Shown: one piece after another, positions 4,777-22,612 of the stretch
How the letters are laid out: each line of letters begins with the position of its first letter
Position numbering within the stretch: position 1 is the first letter of the stretch
Source of the DNA: Escherichia coli
GTDB lineage: Bacteria; Pseudomonadota; Gammaproteobacteria; Enterobacterales; Enterobacteriaceae
Assembly (NCBI RefSeq): GCF_003019035.1
Contig: NZ_CP027447.1
Strand: one strand, 5' to 3'
Length of the DNA: 64,000 nt
Position numbers and translations under genes: made by a program
The notes under the pieces: generated by a model
The model's input: the letters and a program-made list of their open reading frames with translations, nothing else
Databases searched by the model: none
What the model was told of the DNA's origin: nothing

Positions 4777-6034
4777 CGCTTCTCCTCGCGTCAATCACTT
4801 CCATGACATGTGCGACCGTGTGGAACGAACCACACACCAGCACGGTATCTTCCGCTTTAGCGTCCGCCATTGCGGCATCCCATGCCTGCGCCACGCTATC
4901 AAATGATTTGCCGTTACCCAAATGCTCAAGCAGTTGTTCTGCCGTGGCACCGCGCGGCCCTTCCAGTGGCGCACAATACCAGTCATCAACCACGCTTTTC
5001 AACCAGGCCAGAGTTCCGGCAATATCTTTATCATGTAGCATACCGATAACCGCCAGCACGCGCCCGTTTTTCGGTAGCGCTTTCATACGCCCGGTGAGAT
5101 ATTCCGCCGCATGTGGATTATGCGCGACATCAAAAATAACGCGTGGCGACTCGCTCACAATCTGGAAACGTCCCGGCAAAATTGCGCTGGCAATCCCGTC
5201 GCGAACGGCATTTTCACTGACCTCCAGCCCGCTGGCACGCAGTGCCGCCAGCGCCGTTGCGGCATTCGGTTGCGGGACAAGCGGCAACGGCAGATTTTCC
5301 AGCGTGCCGTGAGCATCGCTAAACGTCCAGTCATGATCGGTGACGGAATAGTTCCACTCAACGCCCCGACGTTGTAACAGTGCACCTTTTTCCTGCGCCA
5401 CATCAGCAATGGTAGAAGGCATTTCCGGCTCACCGACAATTGCCGGTTTTTCGCTGCGGAAGATGCCTGCTTTCTCGCGACCAATACTTTCGCGATCTGG
5501 CCCCAGCCAGTCGGTATGATCCAGCGCAATGCTGGTTACTACCGCGACATCGGCATCGACAATATTGGTTGCGTCCAGACGACCGCCCAGCCCTACTTCC
5601 AGAATCACCACGTCAAGTTGTGCCTGTTTGAACAGCCACAACGCCGACAGCGTACCGTACTCGAAATAGGTCAGGGAAATATCACCGCGTGCCGATTCAA
5701 TCTCCGCAAAAGAGGCGGTGTGGGCCGATTCCGGCAATTCCTGGCCCTGCACACGAACGCGCTCGGTATAACGCACCAGATGCGGTGAACTGTAGACGCC
5801 CACTTTGTACCCTGCCGCCATCAGAATCGACTCCAGCGTACGGCAGGTGGTGCCTTTGCCATTCGTACCCGCAACGGTAAACACAAATGGCGCTGGTTTC
5901 AGAATGCCAAGACGCGCCGCGACCTGGCTCACGCGCTCAAGGCCGAGATCGATAGTTTTACTGTGCAGGTTTTCCAGATAAGAAAGCCACGAAGCCAGAG
6001 GCGACGCGGCTTGAGGAGTGCGTTTGATAATCAT
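4766..6034 (-). CDS. folC: Dihydrofolate synthase / folylpolyglutamate synthase
   Basis: 422-aa ORF, Mur ligase family P-loop (GTNGKGTT). Confidence 0.95.
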   Translation of the reverse strand: MIIKRTPQAASPLASWLSYLENLHSKTIDLGLERVSQVAARLGILKPAPFVFTVAGTNGKGTTCRTLESILMAAGYKVGVYSSPHLVRYTERVRVQGQELPESAHTASFAEIESARGDISLTYFEYGTLSALWLFKQAQLDVVILEVGLGGRLDATNIVDADVAVVTSIALDHTDWLGPDRESIGREKAGIFRSEKPAIVGEPEMPSTIADVAQEKGALLQRRGVEWNYSVTDHDWTFSDAHGTLENLPLPLVPQPNAATALAALRASGLEVSENAVRDGIASAILPGRFQIVSESPRVIFDVAHNPHAAEYLTGRMKALPKNGRVLAVIGMLHDKDIAGTLAWLKSVVDDWYCAPLEGPRGATAEQLLEHLGNGKSFDSVAQAWDAAMADAKAEDTVLVCGSFHTVAHVMEVIDARRSGGK

Positions 6035-6103
6035 GGTATCCGCTGATTCGTTACGGTGAGAATAGCAAAAGGGCAGAGCCAGTGGCCCTGCCCTTATCAG
6101 TTA

Positions 6104-7018
6104 TCAGGCCTCAGGTTCCTGATCTGGTACCGGTGGCACCACTACGCCTTCACGCGGCGCTTCAGGATTCGGCGCTGGCAGATTCATCAACTTCGCCAGA
6201 ATGCTCGCCAGTTTCAGGCGCATTTCCGGACGACGGACGATCATGTCGATCGCGCCTTTCTCGATCAGGAATTCACTGCGCTGGAATCCTGGCGGCAGTT
6301 TTTCGCGAACGGTCTGTTCGATAACACGCGGACCGGCAAAGCCGATTAACGCTTTCGGTTCAGCGATGTTGAGATCGCCCAGCATGGCGAAACTTGCAGA
6401 AACACCACCCATGGTCGGGTCGGTCAGCACGGAGATGTACGGCAAGCCGCGCTCCTGCATTTTTGCCAGCGCCGCAGAGGTTTTCGCCATCTGCATCAGC
6501 GACATCAGTGCTTCCTGCATACGTGCGCCACCAGAGGCGGAGAAGCAGATCAGTGGGCAGTTATCTTCCAGCGCCTGCTCAACGGCACGCACGAAACGTG
6601 CACCCACAACAGACCCCATTGAACCGCCCATAAAGGCGAACTCGAATGCCGCAGCGACAACCGGCATTCCATACAGAGTGCCTTTCATCACCACCAGCGC
6701 ATCTTTTTCGCCGGTTTCTTTCTGCGCAGATGCCAGACGGTCTTTATACTTCTTGGAGTCACGAAACTTCAGCACATCTTTCGGCTCAAGCTCGCTACCC
6801 AGCTCCACAAGGCTTCCTTCATCTAACAGGCTATGCAGGCGATTACGCGCTGTCATACGCATGTGATGGTCACACTTCGGACAGACCTCAAGATTACGTT
6901 CCAGCTCAGCGCGGTATAAAACCTGACCGCAGCTATCACACTTAGTCCACACCCCTTCAGGAATGCTCGCCTTGCGGGTGGGAGTAATGTTGCTTTTAAT
7001 TCGTTCAATCCAGCTCAT
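6104..7018 (-). CDS. accD: Acetyl-CoA carboxylase carboxyltransferase beta subunit
   Basis: N-terminal Cys4 zinc finger (CDSCGQ...CPKCDHH) and carboxyltransferase domain; start set at internal MSWIERIK rather than the extended ORF. Confidence 0.9.
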
Positions 7019-15241: not shown

Positions 15242-15563
15242 GAAACCAGAACATGCACACACAAAAAAACCGCTTGCCATGCCGCAATCAGTCAGGTTAC
15301 ATTTCCGCTGCACCTCACAAAACGGGTGCCGGGTTTCGCAGCCTGCTGACTACACAAGCGCACAACCGCGCCAGCGGTTTTTTTGTGCGTACTGTATTGC
15401 CACGTTTTTTTCGCGTCAGAATTATGGCGGGGCGTACGGGGCCGACTTCGGTCGGGCCGGGTTCTTGTGTAGCCGGTACTGCGAACCTCGTACGTCTCGC
15501 CACCCACAGTTTCGCAGCTCTGGATGGTGAGTTTTCACAACTTACTACACAAGGGGCCACACC

Positions 15564-15794
15564 ATGGCAAACCGCAAACCACACCGCGCTATCGCGGAGC
15601 GTCGTCACATCCAGACTGAAATCAACCGCAGACTTTCCCGCGCATCACGCGTCGCGCAAATCATGCACATCAATATGCTGCATGAGCGCAGCCACGCACT
15701 ATCAAACATTTATTCCGCCTCTGTTTTCAGCTATCTGGCGGATGATCTGCACGAGCTTCAACAGCTCATCCAGCAGCAAAACAAACTCCATTAA
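15564..15794 (+). CDS. Hypothetical protein (early region)
   Basis: 76-aa basic ORF. Confidence 0.4.
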   Translation: MANRKPHRAIAERRHIQTEINRRLSRASRVAQIMHINMLHERSHALSNIYSASVFSYLADDLHELQQLIQQQNKLH

Positions 15795-15866
15795 TTCCTG
15801 TTCCGGGCCTTTCCTGCACCTTGCGGCGGGAGGCCTTCGCACATCTGTAGTAAAGAGAATTGCAGC

Positions 15867-16256
15867 ATGATTGACGCTCATGACTTCACAAGATGGGTGC
15901 GCACACAGGACACCCGTCTGGCTCCCGTTCTTCAGGGATTATTTGATCTCTACATCCGTGGTCGTGACAACAGAGCACGCACCACAAAACCAGAGAATGC
16001 AGACACCCTTTATTTCACAGTAGACGACTGCTACCGCGTGGACTTCACACCACACGGGCTGGCGTTGCACTGCCTGACACCACACGGCGAATCACTACTG
16101 GCTTATTACGACTCCCCGGCCTCCGTATTTGCGGCAATGCTGGCGCATCGCACTGCTGGCGGGTGTGCCTCGCTGAGTGAATACACCGCTGAATTTAACC
16201 GCCTTTCCACCCTCTTCTCGCAGGAGTGGCAGCGCGTGACGGGATACCAGCCATGA
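15867..16256 (+). CDS. Hypothetical protein (early region)
   Basis: 129-aa ORF, stop overlaps gpA start. Confidence 0.5.
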   Translation: MIDAHDFTRWVRTQDTRLAPVLQGLFDLYIRGRDNRARTTKPENADTLYFTVDDCYRVDFTPHGLALHCLTPHGESLLAYYDSPASVFAAMLAHRTAGGCASLSEYTAEFNRLSTLFSQEWQRVTGYQP

Positions 16257-19093
16257 GTGAGTTTGCATGGAGCTGGAATGAACCACGGCCAGCCATTGAT
16301 CCAGCCAGATTTACGGAGCACAGGCAGGAAACTGAAACCGACCTGCAACGCGCCATCCGTTACTACCTTGAGGCGGACAAAAGGGCACAGAAAGAACAGG
16401 AAGCAAAGGAAGAAGCCTTTTTCGCACAATCCGCCATGGGTAAAAAACTCATGGCATCCCATGAGGAAGCCGGACAGCGTGAAAAGCTGGCACAGAGCAT
16501 CATCAGTAAGCGCCGGGCAACAGAACAAGACCCGGTAGCCCGTGCCTTTGCCACACTGAAGGCGCTTCCCGTTTATCTGCGAGAACCTCTGAGCCGCCAC
16601 CTCTCTTTCCTGCGCAAGAAGCAGGAAGCCGATCGTCAGAAAGGCAAAAAGAGCTGGCAGGCGGAACGCTATGCACGCGGAACCCTGCGCAAAATATTCG
16701 AACGTCTGGACCGCACCGACAGCCGCTGGCTGACACCGGGTTATCGCTCTCTTGCCGGACGCGAACGCCTGGACGATTTGCTTTACCTGCCGCAGCTCAA
16801 CAAACACCAGATACAGACGCTGGCCACCATGACGGCGGCGATGTTCAGCAGCACCTTCGAAAAACTCTGCGATGGCTTTGGCGCGACTGATGGCGAACTG
16901 ACCATGGATGTAACGCTGAAGGCGTATCAGATGCTGGCCCGCATGGCGTTACACCTGCACATCATGCCTCCACATTATGACGCACTGACAACAGATAAAG
17001 ACCGGAGGAACGAACCGGACACGGAGCTGCTGCCGGGCGCAATCCTTCGCCTGACCTGTGCGGAATGGTGGAAACGCAAACTGTGGCTGTTACGTTGCGA
17101 GTGGAGAGAAGAACAACTCCGCGCCGCCTGTCTGGTTTCCAGAAAAACATCACCCTATCTGAGCCAGGACGCGTTAAGCGAGTTTCGCGCACAGCGCGAG
17201 AAAACACGCGATTTCCTGAAAAGTTTCATGCTGGAAAATGAAGACGGGTTCACGATTGATCTCGAGACGGTGTATTACGCGGGAGTAAGTAACCCGGTTC
17301 ACCGTAAGGCAGAAATGATGGCCACCATGAAGGGACTGGAACTTCTGGCCGAAGCCCGTGGCGACAGAGCGGTGTTTCTGACTGTCACCTGCCCGTCAAA
17401 ATACCACGCAACAACGGAGAACGGTCATCCGAACCCCAAATGGAACGGGGCCACCATGCGCGACTCCAGCGATTACCTGGTTAACACGTTTTTTGCGGCG
17501 GTCCGCAAAAAACTGAACCGCGACGGCCTGCGCTGGTATGGCATCCGCACGGTGGAGCCTCACCATGACGGCACCGTGCACTGGCACATGATGGTCTTTG
17601 CTCATCCAGAAGAAATCGACAGCATCGTGGCCATCACCCGCGATATTGCCATTCAGGAAGACCGCCACGAGCTGGGCAATGATATTACTCCGCGCTTTAA
17701 GGTGGAGTATGTCGACGGCTCAAAAGGCACACCAACCAGCTACATCGCCACCTACATCGGAAAGAACCTGGACAGCCGCGCCGTGGATGGCATCGACCCG
17801 AAAACGGGCAAGCCACGCGTTGACCACGAAACCGGAAAATCAATGGCCGAGAGCGTGGAACGCGCCATCGGCTGGGCGCGCCTTCACCGGGTCCGCCAGT
17901 TCCAGTTCTTTGGTATCCCCTCCCGTCAGGTGTGGCGTGAACTGCGCCGCCTTGCCAGCCAGATGGCACGCAACCCGGAAGGCCCGCAACGGCTGAAGGA
18001 TGACGCAATGGACGCGGTACTCGCTGCCGCTGATGCCGGATGTTTTGCCACCTACATTGAGAAACAGGGTGGCGTACTTGTTCCACGCAAAGACTACCTG
18101 ATTCGCACCGCCTACGACCTCGCAGATGAGCTGAACGATTACGGCGAGCAGAGTGTACAGATTTACGGGATCTGGTCGCCGCTCATCGGGGAGTCTTCCC
18201 GCGTGTGCACGCACCCGGATAACTGGAAGCTGGTAAGACGTAAACCGGAAGCGGAAGACAGCGCCCGCGAAAATGGTTTTGACCTTCAGGGCGGCCCTGC
18301 CGCCCCTTGGACTCGTGGCAATAACTGTCCCCGTGTACAGGAAACGGACAACAACGGGACAGAACAGCCGGAAGAACGGCCAGCACCGTGGCCGCAGCTC
18401 CCTGACGGCGTTGAAGTGAACGAATGGATGCGCTCACTGAAACGGCACGAACGCCGGGCGCTGATGCGTTCGCTTCGTGACAAACAGGCAAAAAACAGCA
18501 GTGATGAAATGCAGAGCTGGACACAGAGCCGCAAACAGCAGCGGCCTTTGCCTGATAACCACGAATTACTCGCTAAAGAATGGCGGGAGTCTGCTGAATC
18601 TCTCGGCCTGCATATCGGTGAACAGCAGATGCAGCACCTGTTACGGGGCGGCAGTCTGTACGTTGACGGCAGCATCATTGCACCGCAGGGATTTGAAATT
18701 GTACGCAAACCGGATACCCGACCGGACAGCCGGATCACGCAGCTCTGGCAGCGCCTGAGCCGTAACCACGGCGTAAGCAGCACGGAGATCCGCCATAACC
18801 CGGTCGCCAGCTATCTGGAACAGCTGGCGGCATCAGACCCCGAAGCCGCCGCACGCCTGGCATCCACACTTCAGCAAGACCAGAACACCATGAAAACACC
18901 CGTTACCGTGCTTTCTGACATGCTGCGCGCCATCCGCGACGCAGAGCACGCACAGAGAATCAGTGAAACCACTGAACGCGCCCGCCGCAAAGCAGACCTG
19001 CTGCGGGGTGGCCTGACCATTGGAAACAAAAAACAGACAGAAACGGGATTCACAAATCCCGTAAATGAGCAAAAAACGCGCCGCGATATATGA
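16253..19093 (+). CDS. Replication initiation endonuclease (P2 gpA-like rolling-circle initiator)
   Basis: 946 aa from MSEFAWSW; conserved HHDGTVHWHMMVF region of the phage replication endonuclease family; longer than P2 gpA (C-terminal extension). Confidence 0.85.
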   Translation: MSEFAWSWNEPRPAIDPARFTEHRQETETDLQRAIRYYLEADKRAQKEQEAKEEAFFAQSAMGKKLMASHEEAGQREKLAQSIISKRRATEQDPVARAFATLKALPVYLREPLSRHLSFLRKKQEADRQKGKKSWQAERYARGTLRKIFERLDRTDSRWLTPGYRSLAGRERLDDLLYLPQLNKHQIQTLATMTAAMFSSTFEKLCDGFGATDGELTMDVTLKAYQMLARMALHLHIMPPHYDALTTDKDRRNEPDTELLPGAILRLTCAEWWKRKLWLLRCEWREEQLRAACLVSRKTSPYLSQDALSEFRAQREKTRDFLKSFMLENEDGFTIDLETVYYAGVSNPVHRKAEMMATMKGLELLAEARGDRAVFLTVTCPSKYHATTENGHPNPKWNGATMRDSSDYLVNTFFAAVRKKLNRDGLRWYGIRTVEPHHDGTVHWHMMVFAHPEEIDSIVAITRDIAIQEDRHELGNDITPRFKVEYVDGSKGTPTSYIATYIGKNLDSRAVDGIDPKTGKPRVDHETGKSMAESVERAIGWARLHRVRQFQFFGIPSRQVWRELRRLASQMARNPEGPQRLKDDAMDAVLAAADAGCFATYIEKQGGVLVPRKDYLIRTAYDLADELNDYGEQSVQIYGIWSPLIGESSRVCTHPDNWKLVRRKPEAEDSARENGFDLQGGPAAPWTRGNNCPRVQETDNNGTEQPEERPAPWPQLPDGVEVNEWMRSLKRHERRALMRSLRDKQAKNSSDEMQSWTQSRKQQRPLPDNHELLAKEWRESAESLGLHIGEQQMQHLLRGGSLYVDGSIIAPQGFEIVRKPDTRPDSRITQLWQRLSRNHGVSSTEIRHNPVASYLEQLAASDPEAAARLASTLQQDQNTMKTPVTVLSDMLRAIRDAEHAQRISETTERARRKADLLRGGLTIGNKKQTETGFTNPVNEQKTRRDI

Positions 19094-19138
19094 AGCGCGC
19101 ATAAAACAGGCAAAAACGGGATTTCAGAATCCCGTAAA
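19041..19138. repeat. Two copies of a 25-bp palindromic repeat (AAACGGGATTNNNNAATCCCGTAAA)
   Basis: copies at 19041-19065 (inside gpA 3' end) and 19114-19138 (just upstream of parM-like gene); each has a 7-bp perfect stem. Confidence 0.5.
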
Positions 19139-19169
19139 CGATTAATTAATCAACATAAGGAAAAGCGAC

Positions 19170-20129
19170 ATGAAAATTTGTATCGATGACGGCTCCACCA
19201 ACATCAAGCTGGCATGGACTGAGAACGGCGAACGCCGCAACGCCATCAGCCCGAACAGCTTCAAGTCGGAATGGTCTGCGCCGTTCGGTGGCACGCAGCC
19301 CGCGAACTACATGCTTGATGGCGTGCGCTATGGTTTTGATCCGGTCAGCGATCGCTTTGTCCAGACGACCGACACGCAATACCAGTACAGCGATGTGAAT
19401 GTCATTGCCATTCATCACGCGCTGGTCAAATCAGGCATCACACCACAGGAAGTGGATGTGGTTGTCACCCTGCCACTGAGCGAATATTTCGACACAAACG
19501 CACAGCCGGACATGGCCAACATCAACCGCAAAAAAGCAAACGTCATGCGCCCGGTGGCGTACCAGAACGGAAAAGCATTCACTATCCGTAACGTACGGGT
19601 TATGCCTGAATCCATTCCGGCTGGTTTTAAAGCACTGGCTGACATGAGTCCGTTTGAATCCCTGCTGATTGTGGATTTAGGCGGAACCACGCTGGATGTG
19701 GCAAAGGTTCAGGGACAACTGGCAGGTATCAGCCAGGTGTTTTGCGATCCACACGTAGGCGTTTCCCTGATGGCCGATGCCGTACTGTCGGTGATGGCCA
19801 CTAACGGTATGCGCACCAGTCACCACATCGCCAATACCATTATCGAACATCGCCATGATGAAGCCTGGCTGCGCCAGCACATCCACAATGACGCGCATTA
19901 CGCCAGCCTGATGGCGGTTATTCGTGAAAAGGAAGAAACACTGAAACAACGCGTGATCCGCGCGCTGGCGGTTTTTTCGGGTTACGGGCGGGTGATGGTT
20001 GTCGGTGGCGGGGCGGAGATTGTGGCACCCGCTATCCGCGAAGCCTGCGGAGTTAATGCGACTTTCATCGCGGACGGGGTGCCACAATTTGCTCTGGTTA
20101 ATGGGCTGTACGCAATGAACAAGGAGTAA
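19170..20129 (+). CDS. ParM/StbA-family actin-like segregation ATPase
   Basis: 319 aa; IDDGSTNIKL, ISPNSFK, YSDVNV.A.HHAL, VMPESIPAG, LIVDLGGTTLD, VMVVGGGAE closely parallel plasmid R1 ParM. Confidence 0.85.
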   Translation: MKICIDDGSTNIKLAWTENGERRNAISPNSFKSEWSAPFGGTQPANYMLDGVRYGFDPVSDRFVQTTDTQYQYSDVNVIAIHHALVKSGITPQEVDVVVTLPLSEYFDTNAQPDMANINRKKANVMRPVAYQNGKAFTIRNVRVMPESIPAGFKALADMSPFESLLIVDLGGTTLDVAKVQGQLAGISQVFCDPHVGVSLMADAVLSVMATNGMRTSHHIANTIIEHRHDEAWLRQHIHNDAHYASLMAVIREKEETLKQRVIRALAVFSGYGRVMVVGGGAEIVAPAIREACGVNATFIADGVPQFALVNGLYAMNKE

Positions 20130-20133
20130 ACCA

Positions 20134-20445
20134 ATGACGACACCAACCAGAAGAATAAGTTTCTATCTGAAGCCAGCTGCCGTCAAGAACGAAGGAGAAG
20201 CATGCGCCTGGCTGGACAGTCTTACACCAGAAGCCCGCAAAAGCGGCCAACGCGTGGCTTTTCTGGCCGGGCTGGCACTTCTGAAGACGAATCCGGCAGA
20301 GGCTTACCGACTGGCCGCATGGGCTGATGATGAGATGTTACCTGTGACACAAATCAGCTCAAAAAAGTTTGAAGCACAGTCTGCACCAGTGGCTAAGATA
20401 ACCAGCCAGATGGCTGGGAATATCCGGGCGTTATTTCCTGAGTAA
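20134..20445 (+). CDS. ParR/StbB-like small DNA-binding adaptor
   Basis: 103 aa directly downstream of the ParM-like gene; ISFYLKP and LDSLTPEARKSGQRVAFLAGLAL parallel R1 ParR N-terminus. Confidence 0.7.
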   Translation: MTTPTRRISFYLKPAAVKNEGEACAWLDSLTPEARKSGQRVAFLAGLALLKTNPAEAYRLAAWADDEMLPVTQISSKKFEAQSAPVAKITSQMAGNIRALFPE

Positions 20446-20573
20446 AAGCATCTGCGCGAAAAATGCTCACGTTTATAGAGACAGTATCATTCCATTTGGC
20501 ACACTTACTTCAATAATCGATCTGTTAAACAAATAGATTGTCTATTATCTATCGATTAAAACGATCAATTATC

Positions 20574-20601
20574 TTGACAGTAATGTGCCTTTTTGTAAGA
20601 T
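20574..20601 (+). promoter_or_regulatory. Sigma70-like promoter (TTGACA-16-TAAGAT) with GATC overlapping the -10
   Basis: near-consensus -35/-10; three GATC sites at 20519, 20563 and 20599. Confidence 0.45.
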
Positions 20602-20707
20602 CGTTCGCATTGTGAGCGACAAGATAATTGCGCGGCATTGTCCATGCAAAACGCCCCAATAGCAGCAACTATTGGGGCGTAAAACTCGGTCGGACTCACT
20701 TAACCTG

Positions 20708-20793
20708 ATATGCGTGCCTTCCGAAGTAAATCAAAATGTGCGTCGTATATTTTATTGCTTACACGCACCTCTGTAAAGGCACGCATATTTTTC
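20708..20793 (+). terminator. Long hairpin (13-bp perfect stem, nested 6-bp inner stem) followed by T-run; attenuator or terminator
   Basis: ATATGCGTGCCTT (20708-20720) pairs with AAGGCACGCATAT (20776-20788), then TTTTT; lies between the promoter and the GTG start at 20810. Confidence 0.4.
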
Positions 20794-20809
20794 CTATGAG
20801 GTAAATAAA

Positions 20810-21079
20810 GTGCGGGCTAAAACAGGTATTTGCAAGAACCCTCATCGTTATAATCCAACATTTCTGTCTCTCCCTGAATATCAAGGACAAGAAGGTCGGC
20901 ACAAATGCGCTGCCTGTGCTTTTGAGCTAGGCATAAAAGATGCGCTTGAAGGACGCGCTATGGCTCAGAATGATTTAGTTTTAGCTAACATTCCGTTTAG
21001 CCAGGCTGGAACTGTAAGGCACAGAGATGCCTATGAAGCATATGTTCGTGGTTGGCGATTAATACACAGCAACAATTGA
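20810..21079 (+). CDS. Hypothetical 89-aa Cys/His-containing protein (prophage cargo)
   Basis: GTG start with GAGG 8 nt upstream; CKNPHRY...HKCAACAF suggests metal binding; followed by a clean intrinsic terminator. Confidence 0.5.
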   Translation: MRAKTGICKNPHRYNPTFLSLPEYQGQEGRHKCAACAFELGIKDALEGRAMAQNDLVLANIPFSQAGTVRHRDAYEAYVRGWRLIHSNN

Positions 21080-21087
21080 TACTTTTG

Positions 21088-21112
21088 AAGCGCCGATAAG
21101 GCGCTTTTTTTG
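21088..21112 (+). terminator. Rho-independent terminator
   Basis: AAGCGCC-loop-GGCGCTT stem followed by TTTTTTT directly after stop at 21079. Confidence 0.6.
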
Positions 21113-21565
21113 TTTGCACGATAGTGCACAAGTTTGCACAATTTTTTTGAACGACTTTTTGTACTTCCGGCCCGCGTGGTGGCTGGATCCGTCAAGGATC
21201 CGTACGTGCACAAAAATACGCGTTTTTTCTGCGCGCAGGTGACGGGGGAACAGCCCGCGTTTCAGGGGGTAAATAGCATTCCCTTAACGATGTCGCAGCG
21301 ACATGACAGAATGGCCGTATTTCTCACGCTGAGCGTGAAAAATACGTGAGGGATTCTGCTTTGATGGGGTGAAAGGTAAGGCCGTCAAAATCGCACTGAG
21401 GCGGCGAGAACATGCAGTCAGCGCAGTGGGATTGCGTAAGAGTCTGACCGTCGATGATGGCAATAAGCAGGAAAGCGTCGTGAAATTATCTGACTGATAC
21501 AGGAGCTGGAGAGTCGGGGCATAAATTTTTTATGCCCCGGCGAAGCAGCAGACAAGCGAAGCGCG

Positions 21566-22612
21566 TCAGGATGTGGGCTGGGTATCTAACAGTGCGTAAG
21601 GGTTAAAGCGGATCACCTCTTCGCCAAGCCAGTCATTGATGTGCTTCATGGCCTCCATGACGGGCATCAGCTCGTTAATTGCGTAAACCCGCGCGGCCTT
21701 CTCCACATCACCAAACGCACTTTTTTCGCCCGGCATCGCCCCCATCAGTTGCGGCGGAACGCGGTGCGCAGCCAGCACATCATCACGGGATGCCGCCTTA
21801 ACATTCATGAACTCATCTTTTGCGGTGATCTGCTGGAACGGCAAAATTTGCACCCCCTCTTTGCCCCCGTTGGGCGCATGAATGAGCACGTTTTTAAACG
21901 CACCACCACCACGTGCCCCCTGTAGCGTTTCTTTCAGGGAGTCCATGCTTTCGCGGTTTACCTGCGCTGCACCGATGTAGATGATGCACCCGGCGTGGGA
22001 TCCGTTGTCGTAGTACAGTTTTCTGAACATGTCCGCTGAATGAGAAAGGCTGGCCGAGAGTAATGCGCCAAGATATTCCGGCATGCCGTAGATTTCCTGG
22101 TTAATATCCGGATTCATCAGGTGGCACACTTTGCCAGGACGAAACTGGAACGCGTCCTTGCCATCCTGCACATACCACCATGATTCAAGATCGCTTCCGC
22201 GTCGCATGTATTTCGCCAGGGCGTGCCGTAATTTAAGCGGTTCGCCGAGCATATTGCTTCGAAGCTCAAGGAATGCGTTACCGAACACAAACCAGTCCAG
22301 CGCCAGCGCCGAGAAATCCTGCCGGGAAAGCAGCGGGTGCGGGATGTAGCAACCGAGTAATACATTGCGCTTAAAGTAAAGCGCAGACTGATGCCAGGAC
22401 GTTTGCCGGGCAGCTCTTGCCAGACCGTACCAGTCCACCGGGGTTTCATACCACCGCCCGTTATCAGCACAGTACATATTGTCCAGCAGGTCATGCCCGG
22501 TCAGGCGATAAGGACCATCAAATGTGAATGCACTGAGCGATGATTCTTTCCTGAGCGCATCAGCGAGATCAATGCGTGAACTCATGCGCACTTTTTTATT
22601 TTTTCTGCTCAT
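21566..22612 (-). CDS. Portal protein (P2 gpQ-like)
   Basis: 348 aa; position and size as P2 Q, co-oriented and coupled with terminase gene. Confidence 0.9.
   Translation of the reverse strand: MSRKNKKVRMSSRIDLADALRKESSLSAFTFDGPYRLTGHDLLDNMYCADNGRWYETPVDWYGLARAARQTSWHQSALYFKRNVLLGCYIPHPLLSRQDFSALALDWFVFGNAFLELRSNMLGEPLKLRHALAKYMRRGSDLESWWYVQDGKDAFQFRPGKVCHLMNPDINQEIYGMPEYLGALLSASLSHSADMFRKLYYDNGSHAGCIIYIGAAQVNRESMDSLKETLQGARGGGAFKNVLIHAPNGGKEGVQILPFQQITAKDEFMNVKAASRDDVLAAHRVPPQLMGAMPGEKSAFGDVEKAARVYAINELMPVMEAMKHINDWLGEEVIRFNPYALLDTQPTS

Follow-up and report, generated by a model that had tools for sequence, protein, structure and literature searches.

A candidate parC-like site with two palindromes at the gene A-parM junction of P88-like prophages in Escherichia coli

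In plasmid R1, the parC site spans 159 bp, with five 11-bp repeats in each of two sets and a 39-bp promoter core; bound by ParR, it acts both as centromere and as operator (PMC2241845). Actin-like segregation systems occur in integrated elements too. In the srpMRC system of the SXT/R391 integrative and conjugative elements, SrpR binds pairs of repeats, not half-sites (PMC4489591). In the Corynebacterium glutamicum prophage CGP3, the AlpAC/alpS system combines an actin-like filament, a DNA-binding adaptor and cognate DNA sites, and is reported to support the transport and replication of viral DNA after induction (PMC4446434, PMC5539076). Here we analyse a stretch of 64,000 nucleotides from E. 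coli (contig NZ_CP027447.1 of assembly GCF_003019035.1; henceforth the window) in which an R1-type parM-parR gene pair directly follows gene A, the gene of the replication initiator gpA, and in which two short palindromes lie at the junction, the first of them within the gpA reading frame. The host element is an integrated P88-like (Xuanwuvirus, Peduoviridae) P2-like prophage, and the junction belongs to its early region. Judged from sequence comparison, the palindromes and their A-rich flanks probably constitute the centromere-like site (parC) of the type II parM-parR cassette carried by these prophages. A description of this cis site was not found in the literature searched, where articles on P88 and PhiSM go no further than listing the genes in their annotation.

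The parMR cassette and its candidate centromere

The features on which the argument rests are the following.

19027..19141 (~115 bp), no strand: parC-like element, two 42-nt direct repeats around a 31-bp centre, variable in sequence, in which the gpA stop codon lies (from a repeat search and homology boundaries)
19043..19062, no strand: palindrome 1, ACGGGATT-CACA-AATCCCGT, proposed ParR site within the gpA frame
19116..19135, no strand: palindrome 2, ACGGGATT-TCAG-AATCCCGT, proposed ParR site, ending 35 nt before the parM ATG
19170..20129, plus strand: parM (stbA), actin-like partition ATPase, 319 residues (Pfam StbA_N, E=7e-82, and ParM C-terminal domain, E=6e-69)
20134..20445, plus strand: parR (stbB), predicted centromere-binding adaptor, 103 residues (PF10784 Plasmid_stab_B, E=1e-23)

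The two direct repeats (19027-19068 and 19100-19141, 42 nt each) are 81% identical and lie 73 bp apart, start to start. Both palindromes are exact copies of ACGGGATT-N4-AATCCCGT, with 8-bp arms and a 4-nt spacer. An earlier note on this DNA had described two 25-bp palindromes upstream of parM, the first of them in the final 50 nt of the gpA gene. Their presence and position were correctly seen, palindrome 1 lying 31-50 nt before the last base of the stop codon; their length is 20 bp. When up to three mismatches were allowed, the window held two matches to the motif, both exact, against 0.27 expected from shuffles. Within the E. coli clade (103 distinct sequences) the arms and the A-rich flanks are conserved, in contrast to the variable 4-nt spacers and 31-bp centre, and A-tracts recur at roughly helical intervals across both repeats.

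Upstream of parM, both palindromes are present in 103 of 104 distinct sequences. The exception (L032, IMGVR_UViG_2657245439_000011) carries a 73-bp deletion between the 42-nt repeats, so that one hybrid palindrome remains and the usual stop codon of gpA is gone; repeat 2 is readable in the frame of repeat 1, and gpA then ends in ...TGFKNPVTD at the TAA in GATTAATTAA.

The cassette has three of the hallmarks of a type II ParMRC system, namely an actin-like ATPase, an adaptor encoded downstream and a repeat array in cis upstream of parM; an internal par promoter autoregulated by ParR, a further hallmark, was not recognised. ParM aligns with the R1 ParM structures over nearly its entire length (phmmer E=1.3e-92 to 1MWK, residues 2-316). 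ParR is 34% identical to the N-terminal, DNA-binding 56 residues of R100 ParR (residues 5-60; BLASTP E=2e-8), and its N-terminal RRISFYLKPAAVK and C-terminal NIRALFPE are conserved across variants that differ in the linker. Membership of the family would give ParR a ribbon-helix-helix (RHH) fold. The AlphaFold2 (AF2) model starts with an extended segment, continues with helices and a disordered linker and closes with a C-terminal helix, an order of elements compatible with this fold.

Comparison with relatives points in the same direction. Repeats are present upstream of parM in all 25 ParM relatives examined, which range from 31 to 99% identity. For most plasmid-type relatives this region consists of two clusters of ~11-bp repeats around a promoter-like centre with clear TTGACA/TATAAT elements. 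Among the relatives, the sequence of the repeats changes where the N-terminal strand of ParR changes: the strand RRTIAFKLNP of R1/R100 goes with AAACAAAACCC-type iterons, NRKCSFYIYP of an IncL/M type with GTATTTTTCT-type iterons, and the RRKITFYLNP group has TTCTC-type iterons. In the phage clade, ParR variants only 43-56% identical share an invariant RRISFYLKPAAVK strand, and their palindromes are the same. The plasmid search found the palindromes on no plasmid, and plasmid parM matches (~66%) were confined to coding sequence. The earlier note had proposed that the 3' end of the replicase gene and the segregation module share a regulatory or centromere element. The centromere part of that proposal is the best supported reading, every ParM/ParR relative having repeats at this place; the sharing is another matter, to which we return below.

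One could envision the following sequence of events. An RHH-type ParR, through its invariant N-terminal strand RRISFYLKP, would bind each 20-bp palindrome, presumably as two dimers on the inverted ACGGGAT half-sites. The two sites, being 73 bp or about seven helical turns apart and accompanied by phased A-tracts, might then allow the segrosome to fold compactly. The conserved C-terminal helix of ParR (NIRALFPE) would capture growing ParM filaments, and these would push apart, or position, excised or replicating circular phage genomes. Binding of ParR may also modulate read-through expression of parMR, in which case the site might double as an operator. No sigma-70-like promoter was found in 19000-19175 (best score 7/12, so that weak or non-canonical ones could remain), and on the plus strand the stems are followed by AAATGAG and AAACGAT, without the U-run of a terminator. 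Because the element has neither a recognisable sigma-70 promoter nor a plus-strand T-run after the hairpins, parMR is probably co-transcribed with gene A from the early operon.

Several observations weigh against the parC reading. The site has two palindromes where R1 parC has ten direct iterons, and no recognisable promoter inside it. A Foldseek search of the PDB with the model of the ParR monomer yielded nothing significant, and the protein has no sequence match to solved ParR chains. On the minus strand a T-run follows each hairpin, and both were scored as terminator-like. The variants of the arms are single, non-compensatory changes, which do not discriminate between a protein site and a hairpin. 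Finally, all the loci that bear the element form one lineage, and the perfect linkage to parM described below does not represent many independent events.

Natural recombinants and the end of gene A

Loci in which gene A and its neighbours have been reshuffled tell which module owns the palindromes. In a prophage of E. coli O169:H41 (L005), a diverged gpA of 877 residues ends 400 nt upstream, and homology to the window starts at about 19029, within the first bases of repeat 1, and runs through parM and parR. MS20654 (L006) has the same gpA tail as the window up to 18993, followed by genes for a Dam methylase and an AAA ATPase, and is without palindromes. The Hafnia loci (L092/L093), whose ParR is 75% identical, keep the 42-nt repeats, the 73-bp spacing and the GGGATT-N4-AATCCC cores; their gpA stops at a TGA that falls within the palindrome 1 spacer, in a reading frame different from that of the window. 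The closest outgroup, Serratia quinivorans (L170; ParM 58% identical, head of ParR RKISFYLKPA), has the order gpA (822 residues), dam, an inverted-repeat region that shares GGCAAAAACGGGA with the window, and parM-parR, so that its par site is separate from gpA. Wherever the double core motif was found in viral contigs, parM followed 37 nt downstream (72/72 loci), as it did in the metagenomes for each of the 30 enterobacterial-type matches.

The palindromes are assigned to the parMR cassette because in natural recombinants they stay where parM stays and are missing where other cargo has taken its place. The sequence comparisons thus indicate that both are parts of one ~115-bp element that travels with parMR and not with gpA or the origin. 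The recombinants, the different frame in Hafnia and the unconstrained last 32 codons of gpA (see below) all speak against an element shared by the 3' end of the replicase gene and the segregation module, as the earlier note had it. From the recombinants, the Hafnia stop and the unconstrained codons together it follows that the gpA overlap is no device for coupling replication to segregation; it is a junction artefact of the insertion of the cassette within the 3' end of gene A.

The position just after gene A is an exchange point for cargo, with the junction within the last ~30 codons, so that the C-terminus of gpA changes with the cargo. It is occupied by parMR in the window, by Dam and an AAA ATPase in MS20654 (4433-6993 of that locus) and by dam and parMR in Serratia (2664-3335 of L170); in other phages the cargo is orf91/tin/old (P2) or DinI/tum (SEN8, 186).

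Gene A itself can be divided as follows.

16253 (ATG)..19093, plus strand: gene A homologue, rolling-circle replication initiator, 946 residues (alternative GTG start at 16226; Pfam Phage_GPA)
18295..18336, plus strand: probable origin of replication, the gpA nick block within gene A, aligned to the P2 nick site (P2 29892), with the nick near window position 18310
18338..18769, plus strand: post-origin part of gpA, alignable to the C-terminal region of P2 and SEN8 (pN/pS 0.12)
18770..18993, plus strand: lineage-specific gpA tail (NHGVSS...ERARRKADLL), mostly helical (pN/pS 0.28)
18994..19093, plus strand: cargo-dependent read-through end of gpA, last 32 codons and stop, overlapping the left half of the parC-like site (pN/pS 1.40)

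The protein belongs with the P2-type gene A initiators: it has the Phage_GPA catalytic core (PF05840, E=4e-131, residues 194-518 of the GTG-start open reading frame, ORF), and the intragenic nick block aligns with the annotated nick of P2. It is 89% identical to gpA of P88, 44% to that of SEN8 and 33% to that of P2. The length of about 946 residues given in the earlier note is correct for the ATG start, and with 761 residues in P2 (694 in 186) the surplus over P2 is 185, close to the 180 that it had placed in a C-terminal extension. A single extension it is not. Alignment with P2 and SEN8 gpA and mapping of the origin show the surplus to be distributed, ~118 residues after the origin and ~67 before it, the latter mainly at the N-terminus and in small inserts. 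From the nick block to the end there are 261 codons in the window, 143 in P2 and 84 in 186; gpA runs ~108 residues past the aligned end of the P2 C-terminus, to a TGA at 19091-19093.

Part of the nick block, the 36 nt from 18301 to 18336, shows 97% identity across P2-like phages of Klebsiella, Salmonella and Yersinia, where the flanks diverge until they cannot be aligned. It coincides with the P2 ori nick site and codes for the conserved peptide APWTRGNNCP, the constancy of which is probably held by selection on the DNA for the origin. Upstream, gene A is overlapped at its start (ATGA) by a 129-residue ORF (15867-16256) without a Pfam match; the ORF before that one (15253-15870), two genes away from gene A, gave a match to the Ash protein family (PF10554, E=9e-6).

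The three-part division of the region beyond the origin comes from an alignment of C-termini (window, Hafnia, the two E. coli recombinants, Serratia, SEN8 and P2) and from the ratio of nonsynonymous to synonymous polymorphism (pN/pS) over 99 distinct sequences. In the part alignable to P2, residues 770-820 are modelled by AF2 as a small domain of helices and a beta-hairpin, with a predicted local distance difference test (pLDDT) score of 83-89. The tail that follows is kept in Hafnia (52% identity), in the O169 variant and in MS20654, independently of the cargo downstream, and a long helix is modelled at residues 883-924. These ~75 residues belong genuinely to gpA in the clade of P88-like phages and Hafnia, and the genuine tail ends near 18993. 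Past ...KADLL the sequences of the window, Hafnia and MS20654 are wholly different. Here pN/pS is 1.40 with a pS of 0.025, against 0.08-0.28 and 0.07-0.16, respectively, upstream, and the final 24 residues are disordered in the model. The last ~30-32 residues of gpA are an unconstrained, cargo-dependent read-through, and the constraint on this stretch acts at the level of DNA, not of protein. The AF2 model of the C-terminus as a whole is of low confidence (pLDDT 60, predicted TM-score 0.27) and was not used for a fold search.

Nor did the description of the C-terminal region as low-complexity and basic hold. Residue entropy is 4.02 bits in the tail and 4.15 in the rest of gpA (3.32 and 3.35 in sliding windows); the net charge is +2 over 251 residues and the pI 8.9, against 8.8 for the whole protein, which makes the tail only marginally basic. 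Pfam found no domain in the tail, a Death-domain match at E=0.03 being judged spurious. A protein search with it returned E. coli fragments only, and tblastn in phages returned only Xuanwuvirus, together with Salmonella phages that the P2-like part matched weakly. Origin of the tail by fusion with a downstream ORF was considered and rejected: the ORF between gpA and parM in Serratia encodes a Dam methylase unlike the tail.

Other readings of the palindromes

Each palindrome can form a stable 8-bp hairpin in RNA (-10.7 to -11 kcal/mol, z -3.4 to -4.6), and the region is probably transcribed through, no promoter having been found. The palindromes might therefore act in the gene A-parM transcript, where processing, stability or translational coupling would set the level of parMR relative to gpA. 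A frequent variant of palindrome 2, GCGGGATT-TAAA-AATCCTGT, fits this idea in that it keeps G-U pairs on the plus strand. Yet no variant shows a compensatory (double) change, variants such as ACGGGACT in palindrome 1 give C-A mismatches on the plus strand, and the two outer pairs are lost in Hafnia. Rfam at permissive thresholds found no match over 18200-20700, an RNA element would assign no role to the A-rich flanks or the 73-bp spacing, and family-wide the repeats at this place are ParR-binding sites. We consider a role as RNA hairpins unlikely. Long-range pairing between palindromes 1 and 2 was discarded as evidence, being automatic for two copies of one palindrome. On the opposite strand, T-rich runs (TTTTTGCCTGT, TTCTGTCTGT) follow both stems, are kept in Hafnia too, and led both palindromes to be scanned as terminator-like; they could end leftward transcription and so shield gene A and the origin from antisense transcripts arising in the cargo or late region. 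Between parR and the palindromes, however, the minus strand has neither a gene nor a promoter, no transcription unit is known to enter the region on that strand, and a much stronger minus-strand terminator stands at 20651-20680. The stems are short, with 50% G+C, the T-runs could just as well be A-tracts belonging to a curved centromere, and two copies exactly 73 bp apart and strictly linked to parMR would not be expected of terminators. Intrinsic termination is thus a very unlikely function for the palindromes.

Palindrome 1 lies inside gene A, and both palindromes are ~730-800 bp downstream of the nick block, in DNA that is single-stranded during rolling-circle replication. They might on this account be elements of the gpA replicon truly shared with the partition module, either a hairpin for priming or second-strand synthesis or an auxiliary gpA site. 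Recombinants and relatives make this highly improbable: the same gpA with its tail but with other cargo (MS20654) is without them, the diverged gpA that ends 400 nt upstream (O169:H41) has them together with parM, nothing comparable exists in P2, 186 or SEN8, and dam stands between gpA and the par region in Serratia. It is harder still to credit that the palindromes are products of chance or selfish repeats akin to repetitive extragenic palindromic (REP) sequences, with no function for the phage. The GGGATT-N4-AATCCC core does occur in 86 unrelated, GC-rich interspersed palindromes of environmental metagenomes. These have GC-rich extended stems, however, and are without the A-rich flanks, the spacing or parM; the window holds exactly two copies in 64 kb, and E. 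coli and Hafnia have core and spacing in common, whereas non-coding positions nearby vary. The metagenome pattern scan returned mostly such unrelated REP-like or array-like palindromes, GCGGGGGATT-N4-AATCCCCCGC in 86 environmental contigs (within L207-L321, for example L211, L241 and L296), often in tandem at intervals of 70-100 bp.

Distribution, significance and comparison with known systems

Over 18300-20500 the window shares 96-97% identity with Escherichia phages P88, 520873, PhiR44_2 and Chuche and with Citrobacter phage PhiSM. In these Xuanwuvirus phages the three genes carry the labels replication endonuclease, ParM and partition protein. Phage 503458, where gpA and parM are annotated in pieces, was disregarded as a frameshift-ridden record. 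Of 5426 complete E. coli genomes, 1370 were matched by a probe of 401 nt spanning the junction (18850-19250), so that about a quarter of these carry the prophage module; among them are O157:H7 Sakai (prophage Sp13, where parM is annotated stbA), E2348/69 and ST131. As the earlier note had allowed it might be, the extended gpA is indeed common, being present in Hafnia, Citrobacter and E. albertii besides these 1370 genomes. In short, the locus is very common and annotated at gene level by homology; the candidate cis site is newly defined, its layout is somewhat unusual, and the host element is unusual for it.

Two carriers deserve mention on their own account. In Sakai Sp13 (L322), a copy of IS629/IS1203 stands directly after parR (5119-6188), and the gpA-parM-parR block with both palindromes is retained in a rearranged prophage region annotated as ~21 kb. 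Record NZ_CP148288.1 (L008), an anecdotal case, is a complete P88-like genome with integrase, cox, gpA, parMR and late genes, deposited as a 34,461-bp circular non-mobilizable E. coli "plasmid"; it could be an episomal form, or else induced phage DNA that was assembled as a circle.

Downstream of parR, 20446-20800 is variable cargo. It contains promoter-like sequences at 20574-20601 (plus strand, TTGACA-16-TAAGAT) and at 20777-20749 (minus strand, TTTACA-17-TAAAAT), and a hairpin with a perfect 12-bp stem (20651-20680) followed by a T-run on the minus strand. Together these elements could define a small RNA of ~95 nt on the minus strand; Rfam gave sub-threshold matches only over 20400-21700.

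The more interesting question is why a common integrating phage with rolling-circle replication should keep a plasmid partition machine beside its origin. It is tempting to speculate, with due reserve, that ParMR and a palindromic centromere abutting the gene A origin give these prophages a plasmid-like phase, in which ParM filaments separate or position circles that have been excised or are replicating by the rolling-circle mode. This might allow a heritable episomal carrier state, or improve replication and packaging after induction, and read-through of gpA could couple translation of the replicase end to the occupancy of the site by ParR. We regard such a scheme as rather unlikely as it stands. 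If true, it would make the cassette a phage counterpart of SXT/R391 srpMRC and CGP3 AlpAC in roughly a quarter of E. coli genomes. The pair of 20-bp palindromes offers a concrete probe for ParR binding, incompatibility and stabilisation. For annotation, the terminal ~30 residues of these "replication endonuclease" proteins should be taken as cargo-dependent read-through and not as functional protein.

Set beside R1 and R100, the locus has the same order of cis site, parM and parR, a homologous ParM and a ParR of the same family (PF10784). As in their parC, two blocks of repeats around a centre lie upstream of parM, the coding strand is A-rich and the site ends at a CATAAGGA ribosome-binding context; the phasing of A-tracts in the repeats recalls the intrinsic curvature reported for R1 parC. 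The differences lie in the build of the site and in its carrier. R1 has twice five direct iterons, the window a site of ~115 bp with two 42-nt repeats and one palindrome in each; the R1 core contains the par promoter, whereas the 31-bp centre here has no recognisable promoter and holds the stop codon of the upstream gene. R1 is a plasmid, and the window element sits in an integrating P2-like prophage. From the phage side, gene A of P2 and 186 has the Phage_GPA core, the intragenic nick block and the cargo position just downstream (orf91/tin/old in P2, tum in 186) in common with the window, but a shorter post-origin coding part, no par cassette and no such palindromes.

Among systems of integrating elements, AlpAC differs in its unrelated actin-like lineage, its actinobacterial host, its adaptor and sites and the absence of a link to a gpA-type replicase; for ParMR-like systems of integrated prophages it nonetheless sets a functional precedent. 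The srpMRC system belongs to an integrative and conjugative element, not to a phage, and is under SetCD control; SrpR has no similarity to ParR, and SrpM falls in another ParM branch (PMC4489591). Like the cassette described here, it is a type II system in an integrating element that replicates by the rolling-circle mode when excised, with srpC upstream of the actin-like gene, and srpC provides the precedent for a centromere made of a few inverted repeat pairs (PMC4489591).

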